Under the pieces are notes generated by a model. It was not told the DNA's origin, did no database searches, and saw only the letters and a list, made by a program, of their open reading frames with translations. From an uncultured Bacilli bacterium (lineage in GTDB: Bacteria > Bacillota_I > Bacilli_A > RF39 > UBA660), in contig CAKPTA010000001.1 in assembly GCA_934190785.1 (NCBI GenBank), forward strand, positions 13,514 to 77,513: a stretch of 64,000 bases of DNA. Direction: 5' to 3'. Below, in pieces: positions 17,321 through 63,609 of the stretch; the stretch's first letter is position 1; every line of letters starts with the position of its first letter. Position numbers and translations under genes: made by a program.

Positions 17321-17334
17321 TTTGCAGAAATGGT

Positions 17335-17365
17335 AAGCCTATACTATAAAAAATAGTATGGGCTT
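17335..17365 (+). terminator. attenuator-like hairpin downstream of rplL (weak U-tract)
   Basis: AAGCCTATACTAT-aaaaa-ATAGTATGGGCTT stem with one G·U; the following T-run is poor. Confidence 0.3.
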
Positions 17366-17403
17366 TAACCGTTTATATATATGATTATATGAAGAGGTGA
17401 TCT

Positions 17404-17994: not shown

Positions 17995-18094
17995 CAATTT
18001 GCAATTGTTTTGGTAAAATTATAAATTGACATATACCCATTATTAGTGGAGTATGTTCTTTTTGCAAATAAATATAGTTATAGGGGTGAATTTA

Positions 18095-26741: not shown

Positions 26742-26777
26742 AAACGAATTTTATAATTCGTTTTTATTTTTTTATTT
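26742..26777 (+). terminator. rho-independent terminator after tRNA-Ser
   Basis: AAACGAATTttatAATTCGTTT hairpin plus T-rich tract. Confidence 0.65.
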
Positions 26778-26839
26778 TGATAAATTATAGTTTAGGCAAG
26801 AAAATAGATGCTCCATATATTAAAGTAAGGAGGTATTTT

Positions 26840-27465: not shown

Positions 27466-27501
27466 CCACTTGACAAGTGGGGGTGGGGTGTATGCTAAAA
27501 T
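27466..27501 (+). promoter_or_regulatory. putative promoter/operator upstream of the pilin-like gene
   Basis: Perfect inverted repeat CCACTTG-a-CAAGTGG (27466..27480) overlaps a TTGACA hexamer (27470..27475). TAAAAT at 27496, but spacing to −35 is non-canonical. The surrounding segment is unusually GC-rich. Confidence 0.35.
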
Positions 27502-27529
27502 ACACTTTAGAATAGAGGTGTATTTTTTT

Positions 27530-46675: not shown

Positions 46676-48112
46676 ATGAAAGTTAAAAAAATTGTATTTA
46701 TTGTAGCTTTATTATTGATTTTATGTGGTATTTTTTATTGTTTACCATATAAAAATACCGTAGAATTATATATAAATGGTGAAAAATTCATTTTATCATC
46801 AACAGATGAAAATAGGGAATTTGATTTAAAAACATTATCATCTACTAGAGATAGTTATGTCAAAGTTACTACAAATGGGAAGACAAATGTTAAAGTTAAT
46901 GGGAAAAGAGTATTTAAGTATATAAAAAATAATATCGGAAAAATTGCTATAAATGAAGATAATAAAATTGAAATTGAAATAAAATTTGGTACAAACAAAA
47001 AAGCTACTAAATATGTTATTAATACATTACCATCAACATTTTTAGAATATGATACAAAAAATAACGGTGATAATTATGATGGCATTTATTATATGAGTAC
47101 TTATTCTTTAGCTGATCAAACAAGTTACATTTTTAATTTAAACAGTAATGGAGAGGTACTTTATTATAAAAGTGTGGAAGGTTTTTGTTCACAGTTTAGG
47201 CATGAAATTTCAAAGAGTGGTAAAGATAGATTTGTCTATACAGCCCAGGATTTATCTGATGACAAAACAGTTGATATGAACAATATATATGGTAAATTTG
47301 TTGTTATGGATGAAAATTATAAAGTAATAGATGAAGCTCGTTATATAACAGAAAGAGAAGATGAAAAAACATATACAATATTTGAATATATAGATGATTA
47401 TCACTATCTTATGACTTCATCATACAAATCATATGTGGATGATATTGAAGGCTTTGATAAGGTTATGTTAACACAAAATAACATTGAAGAAGTGGAAAAT
47501 GGTAAAGTCATCTTTAAGTGGGAAAGTGAAGAACATAAAGAACTTTATGATTATACTGATACAAGTACATTTACAAGTGAAGATACAAATGATTATTTGC
47601 ATATTAATAAGATTATAATTGATCCTGTAGATGGCAACATTATAGCTTCATTTAGAAATATCAGTACGATTTTAAAAATAGATAGAAAAACAGGTGATAT
47701 TATTTGGTCACTTGGTGGTAAAAAAGATGATTTTGGATTAACTCTAGATGAAATGTTCAATTATCAACATTCTCTATCATTCACGAGTGATCATTCACTT
47801 ATGATTTTTGATAATGGAGATAATAGACCTCTTCTTGGAATAAAAAATGAATCAAAAGTTGTTAAAATAAAATTGGATGAAAAAAATAAAAAAGTAGAAA
47901 ACTATAAAGCATATAAACTTAATGGTGTATATTCAATGGCCATGGGTTCAGTTCAAGTAATAGATGAAGAAAATGATGTGTTTTTAGTTACATATGGAAC
48001 AGGAATATTTAATAATGGACCAGTGGCACTTATTGATTTTAAAAATAATAAAAATTTATTTGAGTTTAATCTTCATTCTAATAAAATGATGTTTTCTTCT
48101 GAAAAAGAATAA
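46676..48112 (+). CDS. exported ASST-family (arylsulfotransferase-like) beta-propeller protein
   Basis: Signal anchor; 'HINKIIIDPVDGNIIASFRNISTILKIDRKTGDIIWSLGG…QHSLSFTSDHSLMIFDNGDN' matches ASST family hallmarks. Confidence 0.55.
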   Translation: MKVKKIVFIVALLLILCGIFYCLPYKNTVELYINGEKFILSSTDENREFDLKTLSSTRDSYVKVTTNGKTNVKVNGKRVFKYIKNNIGKIAINEDNKIEIEIKFGTNKKATKYVINTLPSTFLEYDTKNNGDNYDGIYYMSTYSLADQTSYIFNLNSNGEVLYYKSVEGFCSQFRHEISKSGKDRFVYTAQDLSDDKTVDMNNIYGKFVVMDENYKVIDEARYITEREDEKTYTIFEYIDDYHYLMTSSYKSYVDDIEGFDKVMLTQNNIEEVENGKVIFKWESEEHKELYDYTDTSTFTSEDTNDYLHINKIIIDPVDGNIIASFRNISTILKIDRKTGDIIWSLGGKKDDFGLTLDEMFNYQHSLSFTSDHSLMIFDNGDNRPLLGIKNESKVVKIKLDEKNKKVENYKAYKLNGVYSMAMGSVQVIDEENDVFLVTYGTGIFNNGPVALIDFKNNKNLFEFNLHSNKMMFSSEKE

Positions 48113-48134
48113 ATAAATAATAATGAGGTGTTTT

Positions 48135-49286
48135 ATGAGAAAAAATATTATGATGTTAATTGGATATTTAACAAATGGAGGAGCAGAAAGATCAATTACA
48201 AATGTTGCTAACGAATTATCAAAACATCATAATGTTATCTTAGTAGTGGCAGGAGCAAAAAAAATAGATTATCCATGTCATGTTAAAATAATTGAACTTA
48301 AGTCTCTTCGTAAAAGAAATAAGTTTAAAGCTATTCATGAATTAAAAAAATTAAAAAAAGAATATAAAATCGATGTTACAATTAGTTATACAACAGTTTA
48401 CAATTATTATAATGTAATGTCTAAATATAAAGATAAAACTATTATTTCAATTCGTAATCATTTATCAACAAAGCATGAAAAAAGAAGAGATAGAATTATG
48501 CATAGAATATCAATAAAACTAGCCCAAAGAATAGTATGTTGTTCACAGAGTGTTTATTATGATCAATTAAATAATTATTACGCTAATCCTAAAAAATTAT
48601 TGGTTATTCAAAATTTCTGTAATTTAGATGGTATTATAAGTGATATGGGTTGTGCGATAAAAGATTGTGACATGCATTTAGTAAATGATCATTTAATTAT
48701 TACGATGGCTCGTCTTGTACCACATAAAGGTCATAAACATATTATGAAAGCAATGTCACTTGTTGTAAAAGAAATTCCAGATGCACATTTACTTATATTT
48801 AGTAGAGGCCCATTACGTGAAGAATTAGAAGAATTTTCTAAAAAATTGCATTTAGAAAACAATATATTTTTTATGGATTTTCACCCAAATCCATATCAAT
48901 TTATAAAGTTAGCAAAAGCGTTTATTTTAGCTTCTGATTATGAGGGATTTCCAAATGTTTTAATTGAAGCTATGGCATGTGGAGCACCTATTATTGCAAC
49001 AGATGCTCCAGGTGGATCTAGAGAAATCGTAAGTAATACCGTTTCTAAGGGTGAATTTGTTAATGATTTAACAGAAATGGATTATGGAATTTTAATTCCA
49101 AGCTTTATTAATGAACATGATAGTTCTGATATAACTGAACATGAGAAAATGCTAGCACGTGCGTTTATAATACTTTTAAGTGATGATAATAAATATCATT
49201 ATTACCATAATAAATCATTAGAACGAACTGATGCGTTTGCACGTGATAAAATTTTAAAAAAATGGCTAGATGTTATTGGAGAGTGA
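48135..49286 (+). CDS. GT4-family glycosyltransferase
   Basis: 'EGFPNVLIEAMACGAPIIATDAPGGSREIV' EX7E motif; TGAGGTG RBS before ATG 48135. Confidence 0.75.
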   Translation: MRKNIMMLIGYLTNGGAERSITNVANELSKHHNVILVVAGAKKIDYPCHVKIIELKSLRKRNKFKAIHELKKLKKEYKIDVTISYTTVYNYYNVMSKYKDKTIISIRNHLSTKHEKRRDRIMHRISIKLAQRIVCCSQSVYYDQLNNYYANPKKLLVIQNFCNLDGIISDMGCAIKDCDMHLVNDHLIITMARLVPHKGHKHIMKAMSLVVKEIPDAHLLIFSRGPLREELEEFSKKLHLENNIFFMDFHPNPYQFIKLAKAFILASDYEGFPNVLIEAMACGAPIIATDAPGGSREIVSNTVSKGEFVNDLTEMDYGILIPSFINEHDSSDITEHEKMLARAFIILLSDDNKYHYYHNKSLERTDAFARDKILKKWLDVIGE

Positions 49287-49291
49287 TGAAA

Positions 49292-50461
49292 ATGAATATG
49301 AAGAAGAAAAATGTTATGTTTTTAATTGGTAAGATGCAAACAGGTGGAGCAGAGCATGTTGTATATAATTTATGTAATTCTCTAAAAGATGAATATAATA
49401 TAACACTTGTTACGCGTACGATGGAAGGTGCTGATTATATACCTGATGTTAATACTGTAGAAATACCTGAACTTGGTAGTAAAAAGAAATTATTCTTAGG
49501 ACTTAAAAAATTAAAAAAATTAAAAAAGAAGTTAAAAATTGATACTTCAATTAGTTTTTTGCTTAAGTATAATATTTATAATTATTTAACTAAAAATAAA
49601 GAAAGAGTTATTATATCTGTTAGAAATAATATAACATCTTCAAAGCGTATTTATTCTAAGACATATATAGCTTTATATAAAAAAATTATTAACAAAGTTG
49701 ATTTAGTTGTAAATGTATCAGCAACGACAATGGATGATTCTATTCGTAATTTTGGCGCTAACCGTAATAAAAATATTGTTATTCCAAATTTTTGTGATTA
49801 TGAATTTATAAATAGTGTTAAAAATGAAGAACTTCCAGATGAACATCGTGATATTTTTAAAAGGGATGTTATTATTTCTAATGGAAGATATAATTATCAA
49901 AAAGGGCAATGGCATTTAATTAGAGCATTTAAGAATGTTGCATCTAAAAATCCAAATGCTGTATTAGTTTTAACAGGAAGAGGTTCACTTAAAGAGTACT
50001 TTGAAGCATTAGTTGATGAATTAAATCTTAAAGATAATGTTTATATATTAGATTATGTAGATAACGTCTATAGATATATGCATCACGCAAAAATGTTCTT
50101 CTTAAATTCTTTTTATGAAGGTATGCCTAATGTTTTACTAGAAGCTATGGCGTGTGATTTACCTGTTATTGCAACCGATGCTCCAGGTGGTTCTAAAGAA
50201 ATATTAGAGCCTGGTTCTAATATTAATGAACGACTAAAAGAAGTAACTTGCGCTAGTTATGGGGTATTAGTTCCAATGTGTGATGGAAATATGTATAGTG
50301 CAAATGATGCTTTAACTAAAGAAGAAGAACAATTAGCTGATGCCATTAATATGATGTTAGAAGATGACAAGTTATATAATGACTATAAGAAAATTTCTGA
50401 ACAAAGAGTATTAGATTTTTCTAGGGATAAAATCTTGGATATGTGGCGAAAAATCATTTAA
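49292..50461 (+). CDS. GT4-family glycosyltransferase
   Basis: 'EGMPNVLLEAMACDLPVIATDAPGGSKEIL'; GGAGAG RBS before ATG 49292. Confidence 0.75.
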   Translation: MNMKKKNVMFLIGKMQTGGAEHVVYNLCNSLKDEYNITLVTRTMEGADYIPDVNTVEIPELGSKKKLFLGLKKLKKLKKKLKIDTSISFLLKYNIYNYLTKNKERVIISVRNNITSSKRIYSKTYIALYKKIINKVDLVVNVSATTMDDSIRNFGANRNKNIVIPNFCDYEFINSVKNEELPDEHRDIFKRDVIISNGRYNYQKGQWHLIRAFKNVASKNPNAVLVLTGRGSLKEYFEALVDELNLKDNVYILDYVDNVYRYMHHAKMFFLNSFYEGMPNVLLEAMACDLPVIATDAPGGSKEILEPGSNINERLKEVTCASYGVLVPMCDGNMYSANDALTKEEEQLADAINMMLEDDKLYNDYKKISEQRVLDFSRDKILDMWRKII

Positions 50462-50705: not shown

Positions 50706-51842
50706 ATGACTGATTCATATAAGTATAAATTATTTGTTCCATATAGGGTATCACCTCTTGGAGCTCACATTGACCATCAACTTGGAATTGTTACGGGATT
50801 TGCTCTTGATAAGGGAATAACTATTAAATATAATGCTACAAAAGATGGGAGATTTACAGTAGAATCACATGATTTTGAAGTTAAAACAAATTTTGATTAT
50901 GATTCAATACCTAAAATGGATGGATCATGGCATGATTATTTAGTTGGAAGTATCTTAGCATTAATGGAAAAGAATGATCTTAAATATGGAATAGATGCTT
51001 ATATATGTGAATCACTTCCAGTCGGTGGACTTGCTAGTTCTTCAGCTATTATAATTTCTTATATTTTATCAATTGCAACTGTAAATGATATTAAATTAGA
51101 AGAATATGATCTCATTAAATATGTTCAAAGTGTTGAAAATAAATATTTAAATACAAAAGTTGGAATATTAGATCCAAGTTGTGAAATATATGGAAGAGGC
51201 GATTCTTTGTTATGTTTTGATACTAAAAATAATCAACACAAGTTGATAAAAATGAATAGTAAAAGTAATTTTAAAATTTGTCTTATATATTCTGGTGTAT
51301 CAAGAAGACTTACAAATACAATGTATAATGTTAGAGTTGATGAATGTAAAGCATCAGCATTTCTTTTAAATTCGCTTCTTCAGAATAGTCCGATTGAGTA
51401 TAATAATGCTTATCTTAGAAATTTTTCATATGATGATTTTATTAAAAATAAGCAATATTTTCCAGTTAATTATTTGAAAAGAACTCATCACTTTTTTAGT
51501 GAAAGTGAAAGAGTAAATAAGGGAATTAAATATTTTATGAATGGTGATATGGATAATTTTGGAAAATTAGTATTTGAGTCTGGAACCAGTTCAATTGAAA
51601 ATTATGAAACAGGATCTGAACAATTAGAGGTTTTGCATAATATAGCAATGAAGACAAAAGGTATTTATGGTGGTAGATTTTCAGGAGCAGGATTTAATGG
51701 TTACTATATGGCTATCATTGATCCTAAATATGAAGATGAAATAATTAATGTGATAACAAAAGAATATCTTAATATCTATCCGCAATATAAAGATGATTTT
51801 AAAATATACTTATGTAATGTTGGGAGAGGAGTGAATTTATGA
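50706..51842 (+). CDS. GHMP-family sugar kinase (galactokinase-like)
   Basis: 'PYRVSPLGAHIDHQLG' motif I and 'LPVGGLASSSAIIISY' ATP-binding motif II. Confidence 0.7.
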   Translation: MTDSYKYKLFVPYRVSPLGAHIDHQLGIVTGFALDKGITIKYNATKDGRFTVESHDFEVKTNFDYDSIPKMDGSWHDYLVGSILALMEKNDLKYGIDAYICESLPVGGLASSSAIIISYILSIATVNDIKLEEYDLIKYVQSVENKYLNTKVGILDPSCEIYGRGDSLLCFDTKNNQHKLIKMNSKSNFKICLIYSGVSRRLTNTMYNVRVDECKASAFLLNSLLQNSPIEYNNAYLRNFSYDDFIKNKQYFPVNYLKRTHHFFSESERVNKGIKYFMNGDMDNFGKLVFESGTSSIENYETGSEQLEVLHNIAMKTKGIYGGRFSGAGFNGYYMAIIDPKYEDEIINVITKEYLNIYPQYKDDFKIYLCNVGRGVNL

Positions 51843-52564
51843 AATGTATTTTATTAGTAGGAGGTTATGCACGCCGTATGTATCCACTTACAGAAAATGT
51901 TCCTAAGCCTTTACTTAAAGTTAATGATAAAACTGTTTTGGATATTATTTTGGATATTATTGATGGTAGTACTAATGAAATAGATGAATATATATTAATT
52001 ACAAATGAAACATTTTATGAAAATTTTGTAGCTTGGAGTGAAAGCTCAAAATATAGAGAAAAAATAAAAATTATAAGTGATGGCTCTACTTCGAATGAAA
52101 AGAAAGTTGGTGCCACAACAGCACTTATTCAAACACTTACAAGTTATGAAGTTGATGATGATGTACTTGTTTTAGCTGGTGATAATATTTTAGATTTTTC
52201 ACTTGATTATATTTTTAAATATTTTATGAATAATCCATATTCTTGTATTATGTATTATAATGAAGATAAAAATGAAAAATTAAGAAAAACGGGTGTAATT
52301 GAAATCGATTGTGATGATTTTGTAAGTTCGATGGAAGAAAAACCAGAAAAGCCAAAAAGTCCTCATGCTGTTCCACCTTTTTATTGGCTAAAAAAGGAAG
52401 ATGTAAAAAAATTAATTAAGAAATTTGAAAATACTAGTCATATTGATTCGCTTGGAACAATAATATTAAAATTATGTGAGGAAACAAAAATTAAAGCTAT
52501 AAAAATGCATGGTAAAAGATATGATGTTGGTTCACTTGATGAGTATTATAAATTATTAGCGTAG
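51839..52564 (+). CDS. sugar-phosphate nucleotidyltransferase
   Basis: 'ILLVGGYARRMYPLTENVPKPLLKV' NTP_transferase motif; about 240 aa (HddC/GlmU-N-like size); start overlaps the kinase stop. Confidence 0.7.
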   Translation: MKCILLVGGYARRMYPLTENVPKPLLKVNDKTVLDIILDIIDGSTNEIDEYILITNETFYENFVAWSESSKYREKIKIISDGSTSNEKKVGATTALIQTLTSYEVDDDVLVLAGDNILDFSLDYIFKYFMNNPYSCIMYYNEDKNEKLRKTGVIEIDCDDFVSSMEEKPEKPKSPHAVPPFYWLKKEDVKKLIKKFENTSHIDSLGTIILKLCEETKIKAIKMHGKRYDVGSLDEYYKLLA

Positions 52565-52572
52565 GGGGATGT

Positions 52573-54222
52573 ATGGAATTATTTGGAGTAATAAAAAATG
52601 ATAAAGTAAGTATATTTGTTGATGAAGAAAAAGTAAAAAACAATAATTTATTTGTTTTTATTAAGGGTAAAATATTTAATTTTGATGAGTTAGTAAAGAA
52701 GTATAAAATTAAAGTAAATAACGAAAATGAATTAATAAGTGAACTTTACACTAAAGATGGTGTATCTTTTATAGATGAATTAGATGGAAATTTTTGTATT
52801 ATAATATATGATTATAAAATAAATAAAATATTTCTTTTGAGGGATAAACTAGGTAGTGAACCTATTTACTATTATACAAAAGATAATTTATTTATGGTTT
52901 CTACGTCATTAAAAAAATTAGAAGAAAATGAATTTTTTGTAAAAAAAATAAATAAACAAGCATTATCTAATTATTTAGGATATATGTATATTTATGAACC
53001 ATTAACAATTTTTGAAGATACTTATAAAGTAGAAGCAGGGTGCATTTTATGCAGAGATTCTTCTAATATAGAAGTAAATAGATATTTTGATTTAGCTAAG
53101 CTTTATAAAAAGACGAAAAGATTAAAGCATGTAAGCGAAGAAGAGTTAATTAATAATTATACAAAGTTATTTAAAAAATCATTATTAAAGCGTGGTAACA
53201 GAAACTCTAGTGTTGGTATTTTAATGAGTAGTGGTAAAGATTCTACTTTACTTGCTAAACTTTCTAGTATGTATTTTCATGGTAATATTAATACATATAC
53301 TCTGGGTTTTGAAAATGAAAGAGATGAAAGTAAAGGCGCTAATGCTATTGCAAATTATATTAAGAGCAATCATCATTTAATCCCTTTACATGATAATGAT
53401 GTTTTAAAAACTATTAAAGAAATGCCTAAATATTATGATGAACCATTTGCTGACCCATCTATTATTCCAAGTATGTATTTAGCATCTAATATTCATGATG
53501 ATAATGATTTTTATATTACGGGAGAAGGAAATGATGCAGTATTCTTAAATTCTAGTATGTATAATATTTATAATTTTTCTAAGAGAATTAAATTATATGT
53601 AAAAAAATTGATTAATATTTATAATCACAAAAGAGTTTATCACAACTTTAGTGAAATGGCACAAGTTAATATTTTAGGAAGATTTAATTATTCTGATAAA
53701 ATTACCGGCATAAAAGGAAAAGTTTATAAGTTGTCATATGTTAGAAATAGACGTATGCGTGCTATGATTGGTGATTTAAAACATACAGTTCCAGAAAAAT
53801 ATAAAGTAAAAACTAAATCTATTATGAAATTTTATAACAATAAATGTTATACTCCATATTATGATTTAGATGTTATAACATATTTATTTAAGACACCAAT
53901 AAATAAAGTTTATAAAAATAATCATGGAAAATATATATTTGAGAAGGTTTTATATAAAAATATTCCTAAAGAATATTATGAAAAATATAAAAAGAATGGC
54001 TTTGGAGTTCCACTTACAGTTTGGGTTAAGAAGATAATGCTTAATGATATAAAAACTTTATCTAAGAAAAAGACTATTGATAAGCAAGGATTATTTAATT
54101 ATGATGAATTAACAAAACTTATTTTAGATTTTGAAGAAAATAGTGATTATAATAAAGCTTGTGTGCTTTGGTGTTACTATATCTTTCAGTTATGGTATCA
54201 AGAAAATATAGAAAAATTATAA
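52573..54222 (+). CDS. asparagine synthetase B-like amidotransferase/amidoligase lacking the N-terminal Cys nucleophile
   Basis: AsnB core 'LRDKLGSEPIYYY' and PP-loop 'SSGKDST', but begins 'MELFGV…' with no Cys2 and a shortened glutaminase domain. Confidence 0.65.
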   Translation: MELFGVIKNDKVSIFVDEEKVKNNNLFVFIKGKIFNFDELVKKYKIKVNNENELISELYTKDGVSFIDELDGNFCIIIYDYKINKIFLLRDKLGSEPIYYYTKDNLFMVSTSLKKLEENEFFVKKINKQALSNYLGYMYIYEPLTIFEDTYKVEAGCILCRDSSNIEVNRYFDLAKLYKKTKRLKHVSEEELINNYTKLFKKSLLKRGNRNSSVGILMSSGKDSTLLAKLSSMYFHGNINTYTLGFENERDESKGANAIANYIKSNHHLIPLHDNDVLKTIKEMPKYYDEPFADPSIIPSMYLASNIHDDNDFYITGEGNDAVFLNSSMYNIYNFSKRIKLYVKKLINIYNHKRVYHNFSEMAQVNILGRFNYSDKITGIKGKVYKLSYVRNRRMRAMIGDLKHTVPEKYKVKTKSIMKFYNNKCYTPYYDLDVITYLFKTPINKVYKNNHGKYIFEKVLYKNIPKEYYEKYKKNGFGVPLTVWVKKIMLNDIKTLSKKKTIDKQGLFNYDELTKLILDFEENSDYNKACVLWCYYIFQLWYQENIEKL

Positions 54223-54235
54223 GGAGTAGGTAATC

Positions 54236-55345
54236 ATGAAAGTACTGTTTGTTGCTAATACAGATAAGCATATAAATTTATGTTATAGACCATACATGAA
54301 ATATTTAAAAGAAAACAATTTTACTGTACATACTGCAACAAACACGGATGTTATGCTTGATTACTCCATAAAAAAGTATAAGATACCTATTTATCGCAGT
54401 CCATTTCATGTTGGAAACATAAGAGCAATTTTAAAATTAAGGAAAATTATAAACAATGAACAATACGATATTATCAGCTGTAGTACACCAATGGGAGGTG
54501 TTATTGCTAGAGTAGCAGCTATTAAAGCGAGAGAGAAATATAATACTAAAGTTCTTTATACAGCTCATGGTTTTCATTTTTTTAGTGTTCATGGTAAATT
54601 AAAAGGTAAAATATATTATTTAATTGAAAAAATTTTAGCTAAATACACTGATATTTTAGTTACTATTAATGATGAAGATTATAATATTGCTAAAAAAAAT
54701 TTTAATACTGATACAAGGCTTATTAAGGGAATAGGTTTTAATAAAGAAAGATTAAATAACAAGTTAACAAAAGAAGAAATAAAAAAAATGCGCTCTATAT
54801 TAAATCTTAAAGAGAGCGATTATGTTATTATATATATTGCAGAAATATCAAAAAGAAAAAGACAAAAGTATTTAATAAAAGCATTATCAAAAATAAATGA
54901 TGATAATATTAAATTATTATTAGTTGGGGATGATATTTTAAATACAAATATAAACAAATATATTCATAAACTTTCTTTAGATAGTAGAGTTAAAATTTTG
55001 GGATTTAGAGATGATATTTCAAATCTTTTAGATATATCTGATTTGGTTGTCTCAGTATCTAGTCAAGAAGGACTTCCTTTGAATATAATGGAAGCTATGT
55101 ATAAAAATAAAGCAATTATTGTAACTGATTGTAGAGGAAATAGAGATTTAATTAAAAACAATTATAATGGAATAGTAGTTCCCATTAGTGATATTTGTGA
55201 ACTTAATAAAAATATAGTTGATCTAAAGAAAAATAAAAATAAAGCATTAAAGATGGGTGCGATTAATAAAGATATAATTAATGAATATAGTGTTGATAAT
55301 ATTTTAAGTAAATATGTAGATATTTATGAAGAGTTACTTAAGTAG
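54236..55345 (+). CDS. GT4-family glycosyltransferase
   Basis: 'EGLPLNIMEAMYKNKAIIVTDCRGNRDLI'. Confidence 0.7.
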   Translation: MKVLFVANTDKHINLCYRPYMKYLKENNFTVHTATNTDVMLDYSIKKYKIPIYRSPFHVGNIRAILKLRKIINNEQYDIISCSTPMGGVIARVAAIKAREKYNTKVLYTAHGFHFFSVHGKLKGKIYYLIEKILAKYTDILVTINDEDYNIAKKNFNTDTRLIKGIGFNKERLNNKLTKEEIKKMRSILNLKESDYVIIYIAEISKRKRQKYLIKALSKINDDNIKLLLVGDDILNTNINKYIHKLSLDSRVKILGFRDDISNLLDISDLVVSVSSQEGLPLNIMEAMYKNKAIIVTDCRGNRDLIKNNYNGIVVPISDICELNKNIVDLKKNKNKALKMGAINKDIINEYSVDNILSKYVDIYEELLK

Positions 55346-55353
55346 GTGAATTA

Positions 55354-57066
55354 ATGAAAAAAATTATAAATGATATAAAAGCAAGCAAAGCCTTTCTTAA
55401 AAATTGTAAAAAAGAAATCATATTAATAATTATTTTAAGTATTTTTGTAACACTTATTTCTATTATAAATCCATCTATCTGTGGTATGATTGTTAATAAT
55501 ATTTTAGCCTCTAATTTTAAAAAGTCATTCATCCTAGCAATTGCAATTAGTGTATTTCAATTTGCACTTGTTTCGTGCAATCTTTTAATTAGTAAAAACT
55601 ATTTAAAAGCTCAACAAAAAATGATTTTAAACATTAGAAAAAGTGCTTGTAGACTTTTACTTAATTTAAAACTTGGTGTTATCACAAAAAAAGGTCAAGG
55701 TAAATTCTTAAGCAGAATCAAAGGTGATTCTACTAAAATCGCATCTTATTTTAGTAATATGAAAGATAGTATTGTTCTAGCTTTGAGTAATATCGGAGTA
55801 TTGTTTATTATTTTTAAACTAAATTATATTATTGGAATTTATTATTTAATATGTACTATTATATTACTTACAATTCGTTATTATGGTGTAAAAAAGAGTT
55901 TATATTATAGGAAACTTAATTTAGAATTATCTGACAATAACTCTATGTTACTTGGACAAGTTATCAAAGGTGCTAGAGATATTAAGGTTTTAAAATTAAA
56001 AAGTATTTTTAATGAACAAGCAGATCGTTCATTTGAACAAATATCTAATTTAGAATACAAAAGTAATATTTATTTTGAATATACAAATAAAATATGTAAT
56101 TTCATAGAAACAGTATCTACTGGTTGTCTAATTTTTTTATCTATTTTTCTTATAAAAATAAATGCTTTGACAACTGATTCATTTGTTATTATTTTTATGT
56201 ATCGCACAAGTATTTTTACCTTTTCTAATAAAATAGGGCAGTTATTAAATCAATTTGGTCAATTTCAGTTATCACTTGATCGTATTTTAGCTATTTTTGA
56301 ATATAGTGTTGAAAGCTATGGTAATGTTGAAATGAAAGATTATTTAGGAAGTATTAAATTTGATCATGTTTCATATGAATATGAAGAGGGATTTTCTCTA
56401 AAGGATATATCATTTAATGTAGATAATGGTAAGTTTATATCATTTGTTGGAAAGAGTGGTTCAGGAAAATCAACTATCTTTTCACTTTTAACAAAAATAA
56501 TTGAACCGGATAAGGGATCTATCTATTTTGACTCCTATAATTTGAGTGATGTAACAGAGGATAGCATTCGTGAAAATATTTCTTTAGTAACACAACAACC
56601 ATTTTTATTTAATATGACCATTCGTGAAAATCTATCTATTATTGATGATAACGTTGATCATATTAATAAAGTTTGTCATGATGTTGGTCTAGATCGTCTT
56701 ATTTCTAATTTAGAAAATGGTTATGATACTGTTATAGATGAAGACGGAGGTAATTTAAGCGGTGGTGAAAAACAAAAATTAGCGCTTGCTCGAGTATTAC
56801 TATCTAATACTAAAGTAATCCTTTTAGATGAAGTTACAAATAATCTTGATAATACCGCTAGAAATGATATAAAAGAAATTATAAATAGTTTAAAAGGAAA
56901 ATATACAATTATTATGATTACACATGATATGGATATGGTTGACACATCTGACAATATTATTGTTTTAAACAATGGAGAAATAGTTGGCATGGGAACACAT
57001 AATGAATTATTAAAAACAAATAGTTATTATGAAAAATTATACTATGGAGATAAAGATGAAGCGTAA
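55354..57066 (+). CDS. ABC exporter, fused permease/ATPase (MsbA/PglK-like)
   Basis: Six N-terminal TM helices; Walker A 'GKSGSGKST', signature 'LSGGEKQKLALARV', Walker B 'ILLDE'. Confidence 0.8.
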   Translation: MKKIINDIKASKAFLKNCKKEIILIIILSIFVTLISIINPSICGMIVNNILASNFKKSFILAIAISVFQFALVSCNLLISKNYLKAQQKMILNIRKSACRLLLNLKLGVITKKGQGKFLSRIKGDSTKIASYFSNMKDSIVLALSNIGVLFIIFKLNYIIGIYYLICTIILLTIRYYGVKKSLYYRKLNLELSDNNSMLLGQVIKGARDIKVLKLKSIFNEQADRSFEQISNLEYKSNIYFEYTNKICNFIETVSTGCLIFLSIFLIKINALTTDSFVIIFMYRTSIFTFSNKIGQLLNQFGQFQLSLDRILAIFEYSVESYGNVEMKDYLGSIKFDHVSYEYEEGFSLKDISFNVDNGKFISFVGKSGSGKSTIFSLLTKIIEPDKGSIYFDSYNLSDVTEDSIRENISLVTQQPFLFNMTIRENLSIIDDNVDHINKVCHDVGLDRLISNLENGYDTVIDEDGGNLSGGEKQKLALARVLLSNTKVILLDEVTNNLDNTARNDIKEIINSLKGKYTIIMITHDMDMVDTSDNIIVLNNGEIVGMGTHNELLKTNSYYEKLYYGDKDEA

Positions 57067-58144
57067 GATAATGTTTTATACAATGACACTAAAAAAAGGT
57101 GGAGCAGAGAATACGATTGTTAATATTGCAAATGAATTTATTAATAAATATGATATTACAATTGTAACTAATATAAAGTGTAAATCAGAATATATTTTGG
57201 ATAGTAGAGTTAAACATATTTGTTTAGATAAGGATAATAAACAAAATGAATCTTTTCTAAAAAAAATTATAACTAAATTAAGCCCAAAAAGAACAAAATA
57301 TTTAAAGAAAGTAATCATTAGTGAAAAACCTGATCTTGTTTTTTCTTTCTTGCCAGAACCTTCAATTAGATTACTTAAATTAAAAAGATATTTTAAAATT
57401 CCTTTGCTTGTTTCTGTTAGAAATCATCCTGAACATGAATTTATTCATTTAAAAAAAATAAGAGATTTTTATTATAAAAAAGCAACAACAGTTATTGTAC
57501 AGGATAAAAGTTATATTAAATATTTTAGTGATGATGTGAAAAAAAATATGAATGTTATACCTAACTTTTTAACTGAAGAATTTACAAGGTATGAATCTAG
57601 TATAGAAAAAAGAAACAAAATAGTTACAGTAACAAGATTGGAACCACAAAAAAACTTACAGCTATTAATTAGGGCATTTTCTTTGCTTGATCATAAATTT
57701 GATGATTATGAATTATATATTTATGGGATTGGTAGTGAATATGAAAAATTAAAAAAACTAATTGATAAATATGATCTAAACAAGATAGTTATTTTGGCTG
57801 GAAGAGTTAAATCAATACCTGATGAGATAAGTGATGCTGTTTTATTTGTTTTACCATCTAACTATGAAGGTATGCCAAATGTTTTACTAGAAGCAATGTC
57901 ATTATCTATTCCTGTTATTACAACTTATTCAACAGAAGTCATTGATTCTATTATTACTAGTGATGAAAATGGTATAATTGTTCCAGTAGGTGATGCATTA
58001 GCACTAAGAGATGCAATGGATAGATTGCTTAGTAACAAAGAATTACAAAATAAACTTAAAACTAATGCAAGTAAGGTTAGAGAAATATATAATAAAGATA
58101 ATATTATTAAGTTATGGGAAGAAATTATTGAAAGGTATTTGTAA
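57056..58144 (+). CDS. GT4-family glycosyltransferase
   Basis: 'EGMPNVLLEAMSLSIPVITT'; GGAGA RBS before ATG 57056; overlaps the ABC gene by 11 nt. Confidence 0.7.
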   Translation: MKRKIMFYTMTLKKGGAENTIVNIANEFINKYDITIVTNIKCKSEYILDSRVKHICLDKDNKQNESFLKKIITKLSPKRTKYLKKVIISEKPDLVFSFLPEPSIRLLKLKRYFKIPLLVSVRNHPEHEFIHLKKIRDFYYKKATTVIVQDKSYIKYFSDDVKKNMNVIPNFLTEEFTRYESSIEKRNKIVTVTRLEPQKNLQLLIRAFSLLDHKFDDYELYIYGIGSEYEKLKKLIDKYDLNKIVILAGRVKSIPDEISDAVLFVLPSNYEGMPNVLLEAMSLSIPVITTYSTEVIDSIITSDENGIIVPVGDALALRDAMDRLLSNKELQNKLKTNASKVREIYNKDNIIKLWEEIIERYL

Positions 58145-58149
58145 TATTT

Positions 58150-59778
58150 ATGGAAGTATCAGTAGTAAAAAGTAAAAAAGAAATTAAATTGTATTTAGAT
58201 GGATATAGTAGAGTTATTAATGAAACATTTTGCTATATTCTAGGAAATATATATAATTTAGATAAACTTGCCCCAAGTGGTATAACAAATGAGGAAAAAT
58301 TAATAGAGGCATATAAAATATATAAAAATAAACTATTTAAAAAACTAGATGGTGAATTTGCTATAATACTCATTTTTAATGGGAATATTACATGTGTTAG
58401 AGATAGAATGGGTAGCAAGCAAATATATTATATGTTGAAAGATGATACAACAGTTATATCAACTTCATTAGGCTTTTTTATAAAAAATTATAAAGAAATG
58501 TTAAATATAGATAGACAAGTATTATCTAATTATTTATGTTATTCCTATATACAAGCTCCAAATACTATTTTTAAAGAAGTATCTAAATTAGAATCAGGCA
58601 GTTTTGTACAGTTTAAAAATAGTACTGTACTTATAAAAAAATATTATAATTTAGTTAATGAATATTTAAAAAGTAAAGATAAATTACATGGAAAAAAATC
58701 ATTTGCGGCAATGGAAGATAGTTTAAAAAAAGCTGTTTTAAAACGCGTAAAAAATAAAAATAAAATAGGTATATTTTTTAGTGCTGGAATTGATTCTACC
58801 TTATTAGCGTCACTCTCACATGAATTAACTGATAAGGAAATACATGCTTATACAATAGGCTTTTATGATGAAGAAAGAAACGAAGCTGTGAGAGCTAAGA
58901 AAATTGCTGAGTATATTGGCATTAATTATCACGAATTTTATATAGATGATATAGCTGCAAAAGAAATAATTCATCAACTTCCTTTCATTTATTCAGAACC
59001 ATTTGCAGATCCATCAATGATACCAACTGTATTTTTAAATCAAAACGTCGATAAGGTTGATGTTATTTTAACTGGAGATGGAGCTGATCAATTATTTTGT
59101 GGCTCTAGCGTTTATGATACAGTGTATGAACGCAATATCTTTGCACTGTTACAAAAAGAATTTCTAGAAATAATTCATAGAAGAAAAAAATACAAACAAG
59201 CAAAAGATAGTATTTTAAAGGTATATAATGGTAAAAAAGATATGGCTTTAAAATTTGTAGATATAGAACCAAACAGTTATTATGATCTAGCTTTAGTTCC
59301 TCTTAAAGCTCAAATTAAATATATGTTGTTTGATATTAAAACTTTTTTAGCAAATAGATTATTTAGTAAAGTTAGTTTTCCAGCAGGTTACTATAATCTA
59401 AACATTACGCATCCTTTTGTTGATAATGAATTTGTAGATAAAACATTAAAACTTAGTCATAAGTATAAATATAATTATAAAGTTAAAAAATATATTTTGA
59501 AGAAAATATTATATAAAAGAATACCAGAAGAATTATTAAATCAGAAGAAGTGTGGATTTGGAATTCCACTTAAGGAATGGCTTTATAATATATACAGAGA
59601 AGATATAATATTGTTATCAAATGAAGAATTTATAAAGAAACAAAATTTATTTAATTTTAATAAAGTAAATAATATAATACAAAAACTTAATAATAATTCA
59701 CTAAACCATAAGGAAGCCTATACTTTATTCGCATATTATATGTTTCAACTTTGGTATAAAGCTTATATAGAAAATTAA
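58150..59778 (+). CDS. asparagine synthetase B-like amidotransferase/amidoligase lacking the N-terminal Cys nucleophile (paralog of 52573..54222)
   Basis: 'VRDRMGSKQIYY', PP-loop 'FSAGIDST'; N-terminus 'MEVSVVK…' has no Cys2. Confidence 0.65.
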   Translation: MEVSVVKSKKEIKLYLDGYSRVINETFCYILGNIYNLDKLAPSGITNEEKLIEAYKIYKNKLFKKLDGEFAIILIFNGNITCVRDRMGSKQIYYMLKDDTTVISTSLGFFIKNYKEMLNIDRQVLSNYLCYSYIQAPNTIFKEVSKLESGSFVQFKNSTVLIKKYYNLVNEYLKSKDKLHGKKSFAAMEDSLKKAVLKRVKNKNKIGIFFSAGIDSTLLASLSHELTDKEIHAYTIGFYDEERNEAVRAKKIAEYIGINYHEFYIDDIAAKEIIHQLPFIYSEPFADPSMIPTVFLNQNVDKVDVILTGDGADQLFCGSSVYDTVYERNIFALLQKEFLEIIHRRKKYKQAKDSILKVYNGKKDMALKFVDIEPNSYYDLALVPLKAQIKYMLFDIKTFLANRLFSKVSFPAGYYNLNITHPFVDNEFVDKTLKLSHKYKYNYKVKKYILKKILYKRIPEELLNQKKCGFGIPLKEWLYNIYREDIILLSNEEFIKKQNLFNFNKVNNIIQKLNNNSLNHKEAYTLFAYYMFQLWYKAYIEN

Positions 59779-59958: not shown

Positions 59959-60045
59959 TTTAATCACCCATTTTTATTTTTATCAAAGTTTAATAATTTA
60001 TTCATAAAATAAAAACAAATTCATACGATTATATGGGTGAATGAT

Positions 60046-60957
60046 ATGGACAAGATAGTAATTGGAATACCAAGAAGTTTATACTACTATTATTTTAAAG
60101 ATTTATGGCTTTCGTTTTTTCAAGGTTTAAACATAAAAGTCGTTGTTAGTCCAAAAACAACTAAAGATATTGTAATGCTTGGAAGCAAATATGGAAGTGA
60201 TGAGATGTGCACTGCTATGAAAAATTATTTAGGTCATGTTGCTTATCTTAAAGATAAATGTGATTACATTTTAATTCCACGAATTGATAATTATGGAATT
60301 GAAAATCAGACATGTACTAATTATTTATCATGTTATGACATTGTAAATAACTTAATCACAAATAAGATAATTGATTATAATATTGACATTAATCATGGAA
60401 AAACAGAAGAAAAAGCATTTATACAAATAGGAAAAATACTTGGGTATGATACAGAATTTACAAAAAGAGTTTACTATGAAGCATTAACAGTTGCAAATAA
60501 TAAAAAAGACGCTATAGTAAAAGCTAATATGGTTGCTTTAAAAAGTGAACACACGAAACTATTGATAGTTGCTCATCCATATATAATTCATGATTCATAT
60601 TTTGGTGATGAAATAAAAAATTATCTAAAAAAACAAAATGTTGATGTCATTTATAGTGATAGATTTAATAGTAGTTTAACATCTCGTATGAGTAAAATGT
60701 ATTCTAAAGAACTTTATTTTAAATATTCTAAAGAAAACATTGGTGCTCTTGCCCTTACAAGAAAACTAATAGATGGTGTTATTTTTTTGACAGCTTTTCC
60801 TTGTGGACCTGATTCACTTACAAATGAGTTAGTTATCCGAAAAATAGATATTCCATATTTACAGTTAATTCAAGATGATCTTGATGGTGTTGCTGGAATG
60901 GAAACTAGATTAGAAAGTTTTCTAGATATTATAGAAAGGAAAAAAGTACATGAATAA
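60046..60957 (+). CDS. DUF2229-type 'CoA-substrate-specific enzyme activase' domain protein
   Basis: 'IGIPRSLYYYYFKDLWLSFFQGLNIKVVVSPKTTKDIV…EMCTAMKNYLGHVAYLKDKCDYILIPRI' matches the DUF2229 N-terminal consensus. GGGTGA RBS before ATG 60046. Confidence 0.6.
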   Translation: MDKIVIGIPRSLYYYYFKDLWLSFFQGLNIKVVVSPKTTKDIVMLGSKYGSDEMCTAMKNYLGHVAYLKDKCDYILIPRIDNYGIENQTCTNYLSCYDIVNNLITNKIIDYNIDINHGKTEEKAFIQIGKILGYDTEFTKRVYYEALTVANNKKDAIVKANMVALKSEHTKLLIVAHPYIIHDSYFGDEIKNYLKKQNVDVIYSDRFNSSLTSRMSKMYSKELYFKYSKENIGALALTRKLIDGVIFLTAFPCGPDSLTNELVIRKIDIPYLQLIQDDLDGVAGMETRLESFLDIIERKKVHE

Positions 60958-62020
60958 ACTAAATGTTTCATTTCCACATATGGGTAATTACAGTATTCCT
61001 GTTGAATATTTACTATCACATATACTAAATTGTGATATTATGGTAGCTCCTAAAATAACTAGTTCAACGATTGAAGAAGGTACAAAACATAGTCCTGAAT
61101 TTGTTTGTACTCCATTTAAATATACACTTGGTACATTTATTGAGGCTTTAGATGGAGGTGCCAATGTATTAATTCAAGCTGGTGGTGGCTGTAGGTATGG
61201 ATATTATAGTGAACTGCAAGAAAAAATATTAAAAGATTTAGGTTATAATTTTACATATATTAATTTAGTTAGTAGAGGTTATACTGATATTCATAGAATA
61301 TATAAAAAAATGAAAAGTATTGACCCTAAATTTAGTAAAATAAAAGGTATTTATTATAGCTATATTACTAAAAACATGATTAAGTATATGGATAGAGTAG
61401 AAGATTTTATTCGCCTTCATATTGGTTTTGAAGTAAATAAAGGTTCTTTTGAAAAAATAGAAAAAGAAATGCTTCGTGATTTTTCAAATGTAAGTAATCC
61501 AGTATCACTCTATATTCTTTATAAGAAATATTTAAGAAAAATAAAAAAGGTAAAAGTTAATATTCCCAAAAATGCTATGAAAGTTGGTATTATTGGTGAA
61601 CTTTATACACTCATGGAACCATTTGCTAATTATGATCTTGAAAAATTATTAGCAAGTTATGGTATTGCTGTTAAAAGATATACTAATGTACATTATTTAT
61701 TATTTGAAAAAAAGTACAAAATAAAGAAATATTTAAAATATGCTCGTGAGTATGTTAAATATAAAATGGGAGCGGATGCTGCTGATAATATTGCACGTAC
61801 AAAATATTTATGTGCTAATAATTATGATGGAATTATACATATTAAATCGTCTTTTTGTACTCCAGAGATTGGAGCTATGCCTATCATTAATAAGATATGT
61901 AAGGAATATAATGTTCCTGTTATATTTTTTTCTTTTGATGCAGCAACATCAGAAGTTGGAATAAAAACAAGAATAGAAGCATTTTATGATATGTTAGAAA
62001 TGAGGAAGAAGCATGAATAA
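60950..62020 (+). CDS. 2-hydroxyacyl-CoA dehydratase component-D-like / double-cubane-cluster-protein-like subunit
   Basis: 'VCTPFKYTLGTFIEALDGGANVLIQAGGGCRYGYY' and 'SSFCTPEIG' resemble HgdB-family cluster-binding regions. Start overlaps the upstream stop in a 'CATGAATAA' junction. Confidence 0.55.
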   Translation: MNKLNVSFPHMGNYSIPVEYLLSHILNCDIMVAPKITSSTIEEGTKHSPEFVCTPFKYTLGTFIEALDGGANVLIQAGGGCRYGYYSELQEKILKDLGYNFTYINLVSRGYTDIHRIYKKMKSIDPKFSKIKGIYYSYITKNMIKYMDRVEDFIRLHIGFEVNKGSFEKIEKEMLRDFSNVSNPVSLYILYKKYLRKIKKVKVNIPKNAMKVGIIGELYTLMEPFANYDLEKLLASYGIAVKRYTNVHYLLFEKKYKIKKYLKYAREYVKYKMGADAADNIARTKYLCANNYDGIIHIKSSFCTPEIGAMPIINKICKEYNVPVIFFSFDAATSEVGIKTRIEAFYDMLEMRKKHE

Positions 62021-62972
62021 TTGTTATTTAGGAATTGATATAGGTTCAATTTCAACTAAAGGTGTTGTAATAGATGAGAATAATAATATTATTGCAAGAG
62101 AATATATTTGGACAGAAGGTAATCCTAAGGAAGCAGCATCTAGATTACTTGGTATTCTAAAAAGTAAATTAAGCAAAAAATATGTAGTTAAAGGTATTGG
62201 AACAACAGGTAGTGCCAGAAAATTAATTGGGTTAATGGTTGATGCGAATATCGTCAAAAATGAGATAACAGCTCATGCCGTAGGTACTTTATCAAAATAT
62301 CCAGATGTTAAAACAATTTTAGAAATAGGTGGGCAAGATTCTAAAATAATTATATTAGATAATGGTATTATCACTGATTATTCAATGAATACATTGTGTT
62401 CAGCGGGAACAGGATCATTTTTATCAAGTCAAGCTAAAAGACTTGGAATAGAGGTAGAAAATTTTGGATCCCTTGCTCTAAAATCAAAAAATCCCGTTAA
62501 AATAGCAGCAAGATGTACTGTTTTTGCAGAATCTGATTTAATTCATAAAGCCCAAGTAGGGTATAAATTAGAAGATATTGTAGCAGGATTATGTAAAAGT
62601 ATAGTTCTTAATTATTTGAATAATGTTGGCAAAGGTAAAAAGATTAAAGGCCCTATTATTTTTCAGGGTGGTGTTAGTAAAAATAAGGGTGTTGTTCATT
62701 TCTTTAAAGAAATTTTAAAAGAAGATATAATAGTTGATGAAGATAGTCATTTAATGGGAGCTCTTGGAATTGCTATTATGGCTCATGAAAAAGCAAATGG
62801 TAAAATATATAATTTAGATTTAAAACATATGAAACTTGATACTAAAGGGTTTGAGTGTAAAAGATGCGCTAATAATTGTGAAATCTTAAGAATATATAAA
62901 GAAGGAGAATTAGTTGATACTTGGGGAAGTAGATGTGGAAGAGATTTTTCAAGTGATAAAGTAAAACAATAG
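62013..62972 (+). CDS. BadF/BadG/BcrA/BcrD-type ATPase (HgdC-like activator) with C-terminal Cys-rich extension
   Basis: 'LGIDIGSISTKGVVID', 'EITAHAVGT', 'LEIGGQDSKIIIL'. Cluster-bridging Cys in 'CSAGTGSFL' and 'AARCTVFAESD'. C-terminal 'CKRCANNC…C'. Same 'CATGAATAA' junction. Confidence 0.7.
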   Translation: MNNCYLGIDIGSISTKGVVIDENNNIIAREYIWTEGNPKEAASRLLGILKSKLSKKYVVKGIGTTGSARKLIGLMVDANIVKNEITAHAVGTLSKYPDVKTILEIGGQDSKIIILDNGIITDYSMNTLCSAGTGSFLSSQAKRLGIEVENFGSLALKSKNPVKIAARCTVFAESDLIHKAQVGYKLEDIVAGLCKSIVLNYLNNVGKGKKIKGPIIFQGGVSKNKGVVHFFKEILKEDIIVDEDSHLMGALGIAIMAHEKANGKIYNLDLKHMKLDTKGFECKRCANNCEILRIYKEGELVDTWGSRCGRDFSSDKVKQ

Positions 62973-63411: not shown

Positions 63412-63609
63412 ATGAGACTAAATGAAAGAGGGCAAGCACTTGTTGAGTACTTATTAATTATCGCTGTTATAAGTGTTGTTGTTGTTAGTGTTGTAAAACT
63501 TCTTGGAGGTTATTTACACGATTCAATGGTTAAATCATCTTGTAATTTGGTAGATAAAGTTTATGTAGAGGGTTCAAAACCTGGAGAAGCTACTTGTGTA
63601 GATCAATAA
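63412..63609 (+). CDS. flp: Flp-family type IVb pilin
   Basis: 'MRLNERGQALVEYLLIIAVISVVVVSV' Flp motif (G/xxxxEY) plus hydrophobic helix; 65 aa. Confidence 0.7.
   Translation: MRLNERGQALVEYLLIIAVISVVVVSVVKLLGGYLHDSMVKSSCNLVDKVYVEGSKPGEATCVDQ

Follow-up and report, generated by a model that had tools for sequence, protein, structure and literature searches.

The stretch of DNA analysed here, a 64,000-nucleotide segment of contig CAKPTA010000001.1 from an uncultured Bacilli bacterium (assembly GCA_934190785.1; hereafter the window), carries two plus-strand genes, referred to as A1 and A2, whose products belong to the asparagine synthetase B (AsnB) family of class-II amidotransferases yet have no N-terminal nucleophile (Ntn). 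Both open reading frames (ORFs) are present at exactly the coordinates given for them in an original prediction made from the sequence alone, with the starts and motifs that it quoted (Table 1). A1 begins MELFGV and contains LLRDKLGSEPIYYY (RDKLGSEPIYY) followed by the PP-loop motif SSGKDST, while A2 begins MEVSVV and contains VRDRMGSKQIYYM (RDRMGSKQIYY) followed by SAGIDST. The Pfam Asn_synthase domain is matched by both proteins (E = 1.4e-38 for A1 and 6.9e-55 for A2), and each gives a partial match to the glutamine amidotransferase domain GATase_7 that starts only at profile position 21 (A1) or 54 (A2) of 123. The best NCBIfam models for both are TIGR03108, an exopolysaccharide amidotransferase model, and TIGR01536, the asparagine synthase model, neither of which comes near its cut-off; the alignment to TIGR01536 begins at profile position 70 in A1 (residue 25) and at position 102 in A2 (residue 48).

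Given the in-frame stop codons upstream of both genes, the start position shared in the alignment by 40 orthologues, and the identical lengths of cluster members, we consider A1 and A2 to be real genes with real starts. An upstream in-frame start that would supply an MCG motif, the outcome against which the original prediction had cautioned, is ruled out in both cases, as no start codon lies between the stop and the ATG (Table 1). The preceding genes stop 8 nucleotides (nt) upstream of the A1 ATG and 5 nt upstream of the A2 ATG, the latter being the TAA of a glycosyltransferase gene at 58142-58144, and a GGGGG run at 52564-52568 lies 4 nt 5' of the A1 ATG. Among the members listed for the 90%-identity clusters (15 of 56 for A1 and 15 of 67 for A2), which derive from many independent assemblies, all are 549 or 542 residues long, and these constant lengths, together with the shared orthologue starts, rule out an assembly or gene-calling artefact. 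The window has a G+C content of approximately 25%, nearly all of its long ORFs lie on the plus strand, and a scan for promoters and terminators was uninformative in such AT-rich DNA (179 sites against 173 expected).

A residue-level alignment was built from A1, A2, 38 orthologues, 47 full-length relatives, all of which begin with MCG, and E. coli AsnB from NC_000913, whose numbering we use throughout; residues were then counted by clade over 20 A1-type and 20 A2-type sequences. All 47 MCG relatives have C1, R49, L50, N74, E76 and D98, and 46 of them have G75. The region from C1 to R49 is absent from both the A1-type and the A2-type groups, N74 is replaced by K, I or L (K in A1, L in A2), E76 has become K or T in A1-type proteins (K in A1) and N in all 20 A2-type proteins, and D98 is variable (E in A1, N in A2). 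The replacements reach into the C-terminal domain: E398 and R400 (human E414 and R416), which are present in E. coli AsnB and invariant in the MCG relatives, are exchanged for K or N at the first position and, at the second, for Y or F in A1-type (20 of 20) and A, S or T in A2-type proteins. In human asparagine synthetase (ASNS), E414 lies within 5 Å of the glutamine pocket and R416 at the interface between the N-terminal domain and the C-terminal one (PMC6748925). Judging from this alignment, the glutaminase active site is deleted or substituted in both A1 and A2, in agreement with what had been expected of their nucleophile, arginine and asparagine positions. Since glutamine-site residues of the N-domain and the E398/R400 interface residues have been replaced alike, glutaminase function has been lost in a coordinated manner and not by a single mutation.

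Profile-profile alignment with hhalign places position 25 of the A1-type profile at position 70 of the full-length profile, and position 33 of the A2-type profile at position 77. Approximately 69-76 ancestral N-terminal residues, including Cys2, have thus been swapped for 24-32 residues that do not align, leaving the proteins about 45 residues shorter, within the 40-50 originally estimated. In an AlphaFold2 (AF2) model of A1 the non-aligning N-terminus forms a beta-hairpin with strands at residues 3-8 and 11-16. A1-type N-termini follow the pattern M-[DEN]-[IV]-x-G-[IVF]-[IF] (52573..52593 in A1, and its orthologues), with G5 kept in at least 90% of sequences, and look like the first strand of the ancestral form, MCGIxG, with one residue missing. 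The shortening may accordingly represent an internal deletion after strand 1, with the N-terminus itself retained; hhalign leaves this segment unaligned.

The synthetase half has been retained, as had been proposed. Residues S219, G221, D223 and S224 of the A1 PP-loop correspond to S234, G236, D238 and S239 of the E. coli enzyme and are invariant in 108 relatives, and these four positions, along with G347, D351, K429 and K449, are kept in 20 of 20 A1-type and 20 of 20 A2-type sequences, with E348 retained as E or D. Conservation, measured as mean pairwise column identity, peaks in the PP-loop region in both proteins (0.57-0.59), and the remnant of the N-domain, at 0.48, is on a par with the rest (0.47-0.59). 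The AF2 model of A1 carries very high confidence (predicted local distance difference test 95.7, predicted TM-score 0.94), and its best Foldseek matches in the PDB all have the AsnB fold, namely TsnB9, beta-lactam synthetase, AsnB, human ASNS and CarA, with query TM-scores (TMq) of 0.57-0.71; the fold search does not single out any one of AsnB, TsnB9, beta-lactam synthetase or CarA as the nearest. By these sequence measures both proteins preserve an intact adenylation core around the PP-loop, maintained by purifying selection, and are very probably active adenylating enzymes. Human ASNS E368, the equivalent of E352, belongs to an acidic cluster that binds the amino group of the aspartyl substrate (PMC6748925); this residue is A or T in most A1-type proteins and Q in all 20 A2-type proteins, which points to a carboxylate substrate other than aspartate and to pockets that differ between the two paralogues. 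In the proteins' own numbering, the clade-specific residues include K31, K33, A322 and Y426 in A1 and N33 and Q314 in A2.

A1 and A2 share 34% identity and are colinear from residue 1. Each is the member of its own orthologous group, held together at 41-60% identity, and is clearly assigned to it by group-specific hidden Markov models (865 bits against the A1-type and 391 against the A2-type model for A1; 785 against the A2-type and 374 against the A1-type model for A2). In a neighbour-joining tree of the shared region, A1-type and A2-type sequences formed a clade without any MCG sequence in 96 of 100 bootstrap replicates. As this joint clade excludes every MCG sequence, the tree indicates that the nucleophile was lost once, before the duplication that gave rise to A1 and A2. 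Two tandem A1-type genes, both beginning MNILGIINKDKT, occur at 8707..11465 of a locus from a rabbit-gut metagenome-assembled genome (MAG; L004), where the second ORF comprises 372 residues at the contig end, and this pair shows further duplication inside the A1-type group.

When 1.84 billion representative proteins were searched exhaustively with a profile, 74,184 relatives were returned at E values of 0.001 or below, and among the best 150 of these approximately 14 were truncated cluster representatives. Cys2 was present in 107 of the 143 newly returned top representatives, so that roughly a quarter of the nearest relatives lack it; the 143 included approximately 10 full-length proteins in which the cysteine is replaced (MGGICG, MSGICG, MAGICG) and ten proteins of fewer than 585 residues that are also without Cys2. 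The top-scoring representatives with an N-terminal extension, P0230 (MGGICG, 579 residues) and P0231 (MGAICG, 620 residues), have already lost the cysteine. Nucleophile-replaced relatives of full or nearly full length, with starts such as MGGICG, MGAICG, MSGICG and MGRIYG, comprise P0230, P0231, P0241, P0245, P0144-P0149 and P0156, and P0230 and P0231, the two that were checked, show decay of the RGP motif as well (RGK and KGK). Read from their sequences, the nearest relatives form a graded series that leads from MCG through MGG or MSG substitution to truncation.

Close relatives were found by an alignment-based scan of contigs in only five MAGs, labelled uncultured Bacilli or Tenericutes and derived from rabbit and mouse gut, while a single-protein scan of genome contigs returned none. 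The gene module described below is narrowly distributed, being found in a few uncultured low-GC gut Firmicutes; sporulation genes nearby show that its hosts are spore-formers.

Table 1. Features of A1, A2 and the surrounding glycan locus, in window coordinates.
Feature	Coordinates	Strand	Basis or remark
A1, 549-residue AsnB-family protein without Ntn nucleophile (A1-type orthologous group)	52573..54222	+	ORF and translation
A1 upstream stretch	52549..52572	+	In-frame TAA at 52549-52551, then 7 sense codons, no ATG, GTG or TTG
A1 glutaminase-domain remnant, about residues 25-117; KGKIFN replaces NGEIYN	52645..52923	+	GATase_7 at residues 23-117; hhalign from 25
A1 PP-loop SSGKDST, residues 219-225	53227..53247	+	
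A2, 542-residue AsnB-family protein without Ntn nucleophile (A2-type orthologous group)	58150..59778	+	ORF
A2 upstream stretch	58129..58149	+	In-frame TGA at 58129-58131, then 6 sense codons, no ATG, GTG or TTG
A2 glutaminase-domain remnant, about residues 32-106; LGNIYN replaces NGEIYN	58243..58467	+	
A2 PP-loop SAGIDST, residues 211-217	58780..58800	+	
Wzy_C (O-antigen ligase/O-oligosaccharyltransferase/polymerase family) membrane protein, heading the locus	42164..43441	+	Pfam Wzy_C, 2.6e-18
Radical SAM protein, 362 residues	43434..44522	+	No curated family above cut-off
Arylsulfotransferase (ASST)-like protein with C-terminal BspA-type leucine-rich repeat	44470..46674	+	
ASST-like protein	46676..48112	+	
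GT4 glycosyltransferase, PglJ-like	48123..49286	+	
GT4 glycosyltransferase, PglJ-like	49262..50461	+	
Galactokinase-like GHMP sugar kinase	50706..51842	+	
Sugar-1-phosphate nucleotidyltransferase, directly 5' of A1	51839..52564	+	
GT4 glycosyltransferase	54236..55345	+	
ATP-binding cassette (ABC) exporter, MsbA/PglK type	55354..57066	+	
GT4 glycosyltransferase	57029 or 57056..58144	+	

The setting of the two genes is a glycan-assembly locus, as the original prediction had it. In the window its order is Wzy_C, radical SAM, two ASST-like genes, GT4, GT4, GHMP kinase, nucleotidyltransferase, A1, GT4, ABC exporter, GT4 and A2 (Table 1). Within this set, a module consisting of Wzy_C, GT4 genes, A1, GT4, ABC exporter, GT4 and A2 recurs in related loci from other genomes. 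The closest counterpart, L090, occupies the same chromosomal site, after genes for a PASTA kinase, rsgA and rpe; its A1 orthologue is 60% identical, and its gene order is that of the window minus the ASST-like genes. The most compact, L089, holds only Wzy_C, GT4, GT4, A1, GT4, ABC exporter, GT4 and A2. In L002 the A2-type and A1-type genes lie side by side, L091 has the module with an A2-type gene only, and in L001 an A1-type gene adjoins an ABC exporter, a Glycos_transf_4 initiating transferase and a LytR-CpsA-Psr (LCP) protein. Wzy_C heads the locus in L002, L089, L090 and L091, and the order GT4, ABC exporter, GT4, A2 is shared by L085 (a longer contig of the same organism), L089, L090 and L091. 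In the window and in L089, L090, L091 and L092, a GT4 gene in every case directly precedes the A2-type gene, at a distance of a few nt. The remaining genes are less constant: the radical SAM gene adjoins Wzy_C in L090 and L002, lies one gene from it in L091 and is not present in L089, and the kinase and nucleotidyltransferase are both present in L090 and L002, are represented by the kinase alone in L091, and are both missing from L089.

The radical SAM protein gave weak matches only, to STM4011-type, viperin-like and twitch/SPASM models, and the ASST-like gene pair, absent from the corresponding place in L090, looks like a lineage-specific insertion. The nearest solved structures to the GHMP kinase and the nucleotidyltransferase are ordinary galactokinases and RmlA/GalU-type enzymes; the two could supply an unusual nucleoside diphosphate sugar, and their absence from L089 means that the pair is not tied to A1 or A2. 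The ABC exporter scores below the curated cut-offs for both PglK (156 of 1000 bits) and MsbA (256 of 602 bits). As the longest ORF, the GT4 gene preceding A2 (57029..58144) overlaps the exporter gene by 38 nt, and gene calls on identical contigs give a product of 362 residues; its true start is probably the downstream ATG at 57056.

Several genes beyond the locus may be noted. After a gap of 259 nt, A2 is trailed on the plus strand by three genes (60037..62972) resembling 2-hydroxyacyl-CoA dehydratase components and their activator (two DUF2229/HGD-D proteins and a BcrAD_BadFG ATPase), as it is in L090; these are probably unrelated to the glycan locus. A 65-residue Flp-type prepilin (MRLNERGQALVEY...) is encoded at 63412..63609 on the plus strand, 3.6 kb 3' of A2, with a Pfam Flp_Fap match (E = 3.9e-5) that falls under the cut-off; it marks the beginning of a stretch of pilus (Tad) genes that runs on to the end of the window at 64000. 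On the longer contig of the same organism, L085, the region 15263..20587 contains a Flp prepilin followed by two TadE genes, a ParA/CpaE-like ATPase, T2SSE and T2SSF. Upstream, also on the plus strand, a 550-residue protein with a prepilin-type N-terminal methylation motif and a weak domain resembling formylglycine-generating enzyme (FGE)-sulfatase (27470..29122) is preceded by a protein with collagen-like repeats (26777..27433). In L091 a tight adherence (Tad)/type IV pilus cluster (13781..21002) lies 2 kb 3' of the module, after the A2-type gene, and in L002 three type IV pilin genes (2957..4480) stand directly 5' of the Wzy_C gene.

With AsnB and ASNS, A1 and A2 share the two-domain fold (TMq 0.60-0.65), the Asn_synthase domain, the PP-loop and the equivalents of D351, K429 and K449; they differ in having no Cys1, R49, N74, E76 or D98, in the replacement of E352, E398 and R400, in TIGR01536 scores of 184.9 (A1) and 193.1 bits (A2) against a cut-off of 267.1, and in being encoded in a glycan locus and not among genes of amino-acid metabolism. 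TIGR03108 is the top NCBIfam model for both proteins, and its members WbpS, WbqG and PGN_1234 convert a sugar carboxylate to an amide in polysaccharide loci (PMC7468200). The nearest full-length relatives of A1 and A2 share EPFADPS, SGDGGDE-like and KxGFGxP motifs, and, like the WbpS-type enzymes, A1 and A2 sit inside a polysaccharide or glycoconjugate assembly locus with GT4, ABC exporter and Wzy_C genes. TIGR03108, however, is a full-length model of 628 positions, and every full-length relative inspected begins MCG; A1 and A2 score 188.8 and 209.5 bits against its cut-off of 816.9, align only from model position 68 and 100, respectively, lack the nucleophile region, and have no Wbp-type uronic-acid genes nearby. 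The label of truncated, WbpS-like proteins attached to them by the original prediction is therefore not supported, as WbpS itself, from its described family membership, falls within the full-length family.

Other AsnB descendants offer partial parallels. TsnB9, a hydroxyamidotransferase (PDB 7ylz), is both the top structural match (TMq 0.71) and the top PDB profile match (E = 1e-25), and is an AsnB-family enzyme that transfers a nitrogen group onto a non-aspartate carboxylate; unlike A1 and A2, to which it is 14% identical, its 623-residue chain is not truncated, position 31 of the A1-type profile falling at chain position 77. Beta-lactam synthetase and CarA have likewise kept the adenylating domain, lost the nucleophile and retained a non-catalytic N-domain, and they match A1 with TMq values of 0.57-0.62, which we take as resemblance only; their sequence similarity is remote (E of about 1e-7 to 1e-14), their N-domain is not truncated as it is here, and they close rings within small molecules in antibiotic clusters, a setting absent here. 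Lasso cyclases of the McjC type (NF033535) are also Cys-less AsnB homologues, which adenylate a carboxylate, use an amine other than ammonia and are often encoded beside an ABC exporter, but A1 and A2 reach only 97.6 and 76.8 bits against that model's cut-off of 525, no precursor peptide or B-protein gene is present, and the neighbours are glycosyltransferase genes. The locus as a whole recalls pathways that combine a Wzk/PglK flippase with a Wzy_C protein of the WaaL, PglL or WsaB type, having an MsbA/PglK-like ABC half-transporter, PglH/PglJ-like GT4 proteins and a Wzy_C protein, although no match in the locus reaches a curated cut-off and the window locus has no initiating transferase. Wzy_C proteins include WaaL ligases, pilin O-oligosaccharyltransferases and O-transferases of Gram-positive S-layers (PMC3643930, PMC2943079).

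On this sequence evidence A1 and A2 descend from the exopolysaccharide-locus branch of the class-II amidotransferase/asparagine synthetase B family. On balance we favour, with modest confidence, a role as glutamine-independent, ATP-dependent amide synthetases that act on a carboxylated component of a lipid-linked glycan. Each enzyme would adenylate a carboxyl group carried by a sugar, or by a sugar substituent, of a nucleotide- or undecaprenyl-linked oligosaccharide, and a nucleophile from solution, not derived from glutamine, would then displace AMP to give the amide. The lipid-linked oligosaccharide would be built in the cytoplasm and flipped by the PglK/Wzk-type ABC exporter, after which the Wzy_C protein would transfer the finished glycan to a surface acceptor. 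The clade-specific pocket residues suggest that A1 and A2 have separate jobs, acting on different residues or with different donors, which fits the two distinct steps that had been predicted from the presence of two copies, the paralogues being old, non-redundant and kept as a pair in other genomes.

The nature of the donor is a more tentative matter. Ammonia is plentiful in the gut, AsnB itself accepts it in free form, and ammonia-dependent activity survives in variants that lack Cys1. Because this is the default and simplest activity of an AsnB scaffold without Cys1, and because of its abundance in the gut, we lean slightly towards free ammonia as the preferred donor, with somewhat less than even confidence; assays of ammonia-dependent ASNS activity have been described (PMC6748925). 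A small amine or an amino acid is the main alternative donor, and a rather less probable one.

Several observations weigh against amide synthesis on a glycan carboxylate. Genes that would form a carboxylate, such as those for a UDP-sugar dehydrogenase, a nonulosonic-acid synthase or a pyruvyl transferase, were not found between approximately 25 and 63.6 kb of the window, and carboxylate-forming and uronic-acid genes are also absent from the six related loci L001, L002, L089, L090, L091 and L092, so the uronic-acid substrate named in the original prediction finds no backing in gene content. Nor does the same part of the window encode an initiating phosphoglycosyl transferase, which L001 does have. 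The family-invariant E352, DRxSM motif, E398 and R400 are all missing from the synthetase domain, such that the chemistry could depart from simple amidation, and the conserved replacements within what remains of the N-domain hint that it took on a new function and did not simply decay, fitting a larger nucleophile as well as they fit ammonia. In the searchable literature we found no characterised Cys-less AsnB homologue that acts on a glycan, a weak negative given the incompleteness of the library. The substrate and donor assignments for A1 and A2 are wholly our inference.

The main alternative is that A1, A2 or both are carboxylate:amine ligases that add an amino acid, a polyamine, an ethanolamine-like amine or an amino sugar; once the N-terminal 69 residues and the interface residues had gone, a bulky nucleophile would be able to enter the former ammonia tunnel or the synthetase cleft. 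The replacements are conserved within clades and not random (E76 is N and E352 is Q in 20 of 20 A2-type proteins, and R400 is Y or F in 20 of 20 A1-type proteins), the remnant N-domain is under purifying selection, the differing pockets of the two paralogues suggest different partners, and the Cys-less structural neighbours beta-lactam synthetase and CarA use nucleophiles other than ammonia. The same conserved substitutions could equally be structural, however, no gene in the locus makes or activates an amine donor, and we found no precedent in the searchable literature for an AsnB-family ligase of a sugar carboxylate and an amine; we consider such a function unlikely, though it deserves more weight than the other alternatives. 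A bolder version, which we think improbable, is that the 42-60 kb locus constitutes a protein O-glycosylation system of uncultured, Gram-positive, spore-forming gut bacteria that acts on pilins of the type IV or Flp kind or on another surface protein, with Wzy_C as the oligosaccharyltransferase and A1 and A2 as the first AsnB-derived sugar-carboxylate:amine ligases, each adding a different amide-linked substituent to the lipid-linked glycan. Pilin O-glycosylation is hinted at by pilus genes that neighbour the module in three genomes (the one studied here and those of L091 and L002).

To our knowledge, all characterised Cys-less AsnB homologues are cyclases, and A1 and A2 might therefore form an intramolecular amide, as a lactam or other cyclisation, or act on a peptide, in the manner of beta-lactam synthetase, carbapenam synthetase and the lasso cyclases, with the radical SAM protein and ABC exporter of the locus serving a peptide or small-molecule pathway. 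The match to the lasso cyclase model (98 bits for A1 and 77 for A2) and the fold matches to beta-lactam synthetase and CarA agree with such an activity, but those scores lie far under the cut-off of 525 and well under the TIGR03108 and TIGR01536 scores, MCG-type amidotransferases are the nearest relatives, the locus has no gene for a precursor peptide, a leader peptidase or a RiPP recognition element (RRE), and the conserved core of the module consists of four GT4 genes and Wzy_C, with the radical SAM gene missing from L089. We regard cyclisation as quite improbable, and reject a pathway to a ribosomally synthesised and post-translationally modified peptide (RiPP) such as a lasso peptide, there being no precursor or peptidase gene and a core made of glycosyltransferases. 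That A1 and A2 are inactive remnants that scaffold or regulate the neighbouring glycosyltransferases could be argued from the disappearance of E352, DRxSM, E398 and R400, yet all 40 sequences share, without exception, the S-x-G-x-D-S residues of the PP-loop, D351, K429 and K449, and the PP-loop region is the segment best conserved in both proteins, which makes this very improbable. Split amidotransferases are known in other families, MurT/GatD being one example, and the two enzymes might by analogy still depend on glutamine, through a trans-acting glutaminase subunit or a mis-called start. Between approximately 25 and 63.6 kb of the window, and in the related loci, there is no class-I glutaminase or other GATase partner gene; the in-frame upstream stops without a start codon and the start position shared by orthologues speak against a mis-called start, and the interface residues beside the glutamine pocket have been lost as well, leaving very little room for glutamine dependence.

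Taken at its plainest, the evidence describes A1 and A2 as an uncharacterised sub-branch, glutaminase-dead and remodelled at the N-terminus, of a known family from which Cys-less descendants were already known, and in this respect they are an unsurprising variation on a well-known type of enzyme. The impact is limited in that nucleophile loss is frequent in this branch and the organisms are uncultured. AsnB-family genes are nevertheless common in polysaccharide loci, where they are routinely annotated as glutamine-hydrolysing asparagine synthases, and this annotation cannot hold for the A1/A2 sub-branch. The graded series from MCG through MGG or MSG to truncation provides an example of how a two-domain amidotransferase loses its glutaminase half. 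If A1 and A2 are indeed ammonia- or amine-dependent sugar amide synthetases, a glycan-modifying member would join the short list of Cys-less AsnB descendants that comprises beta-lactam synthetase, carbapenam synthetase and the lasso cyclases. Their activity would also account for the neutralisation or decoration of acidic surface glycans in some gut Firmicutes, a change that alters surface charge, immune recognition and phage receptors.

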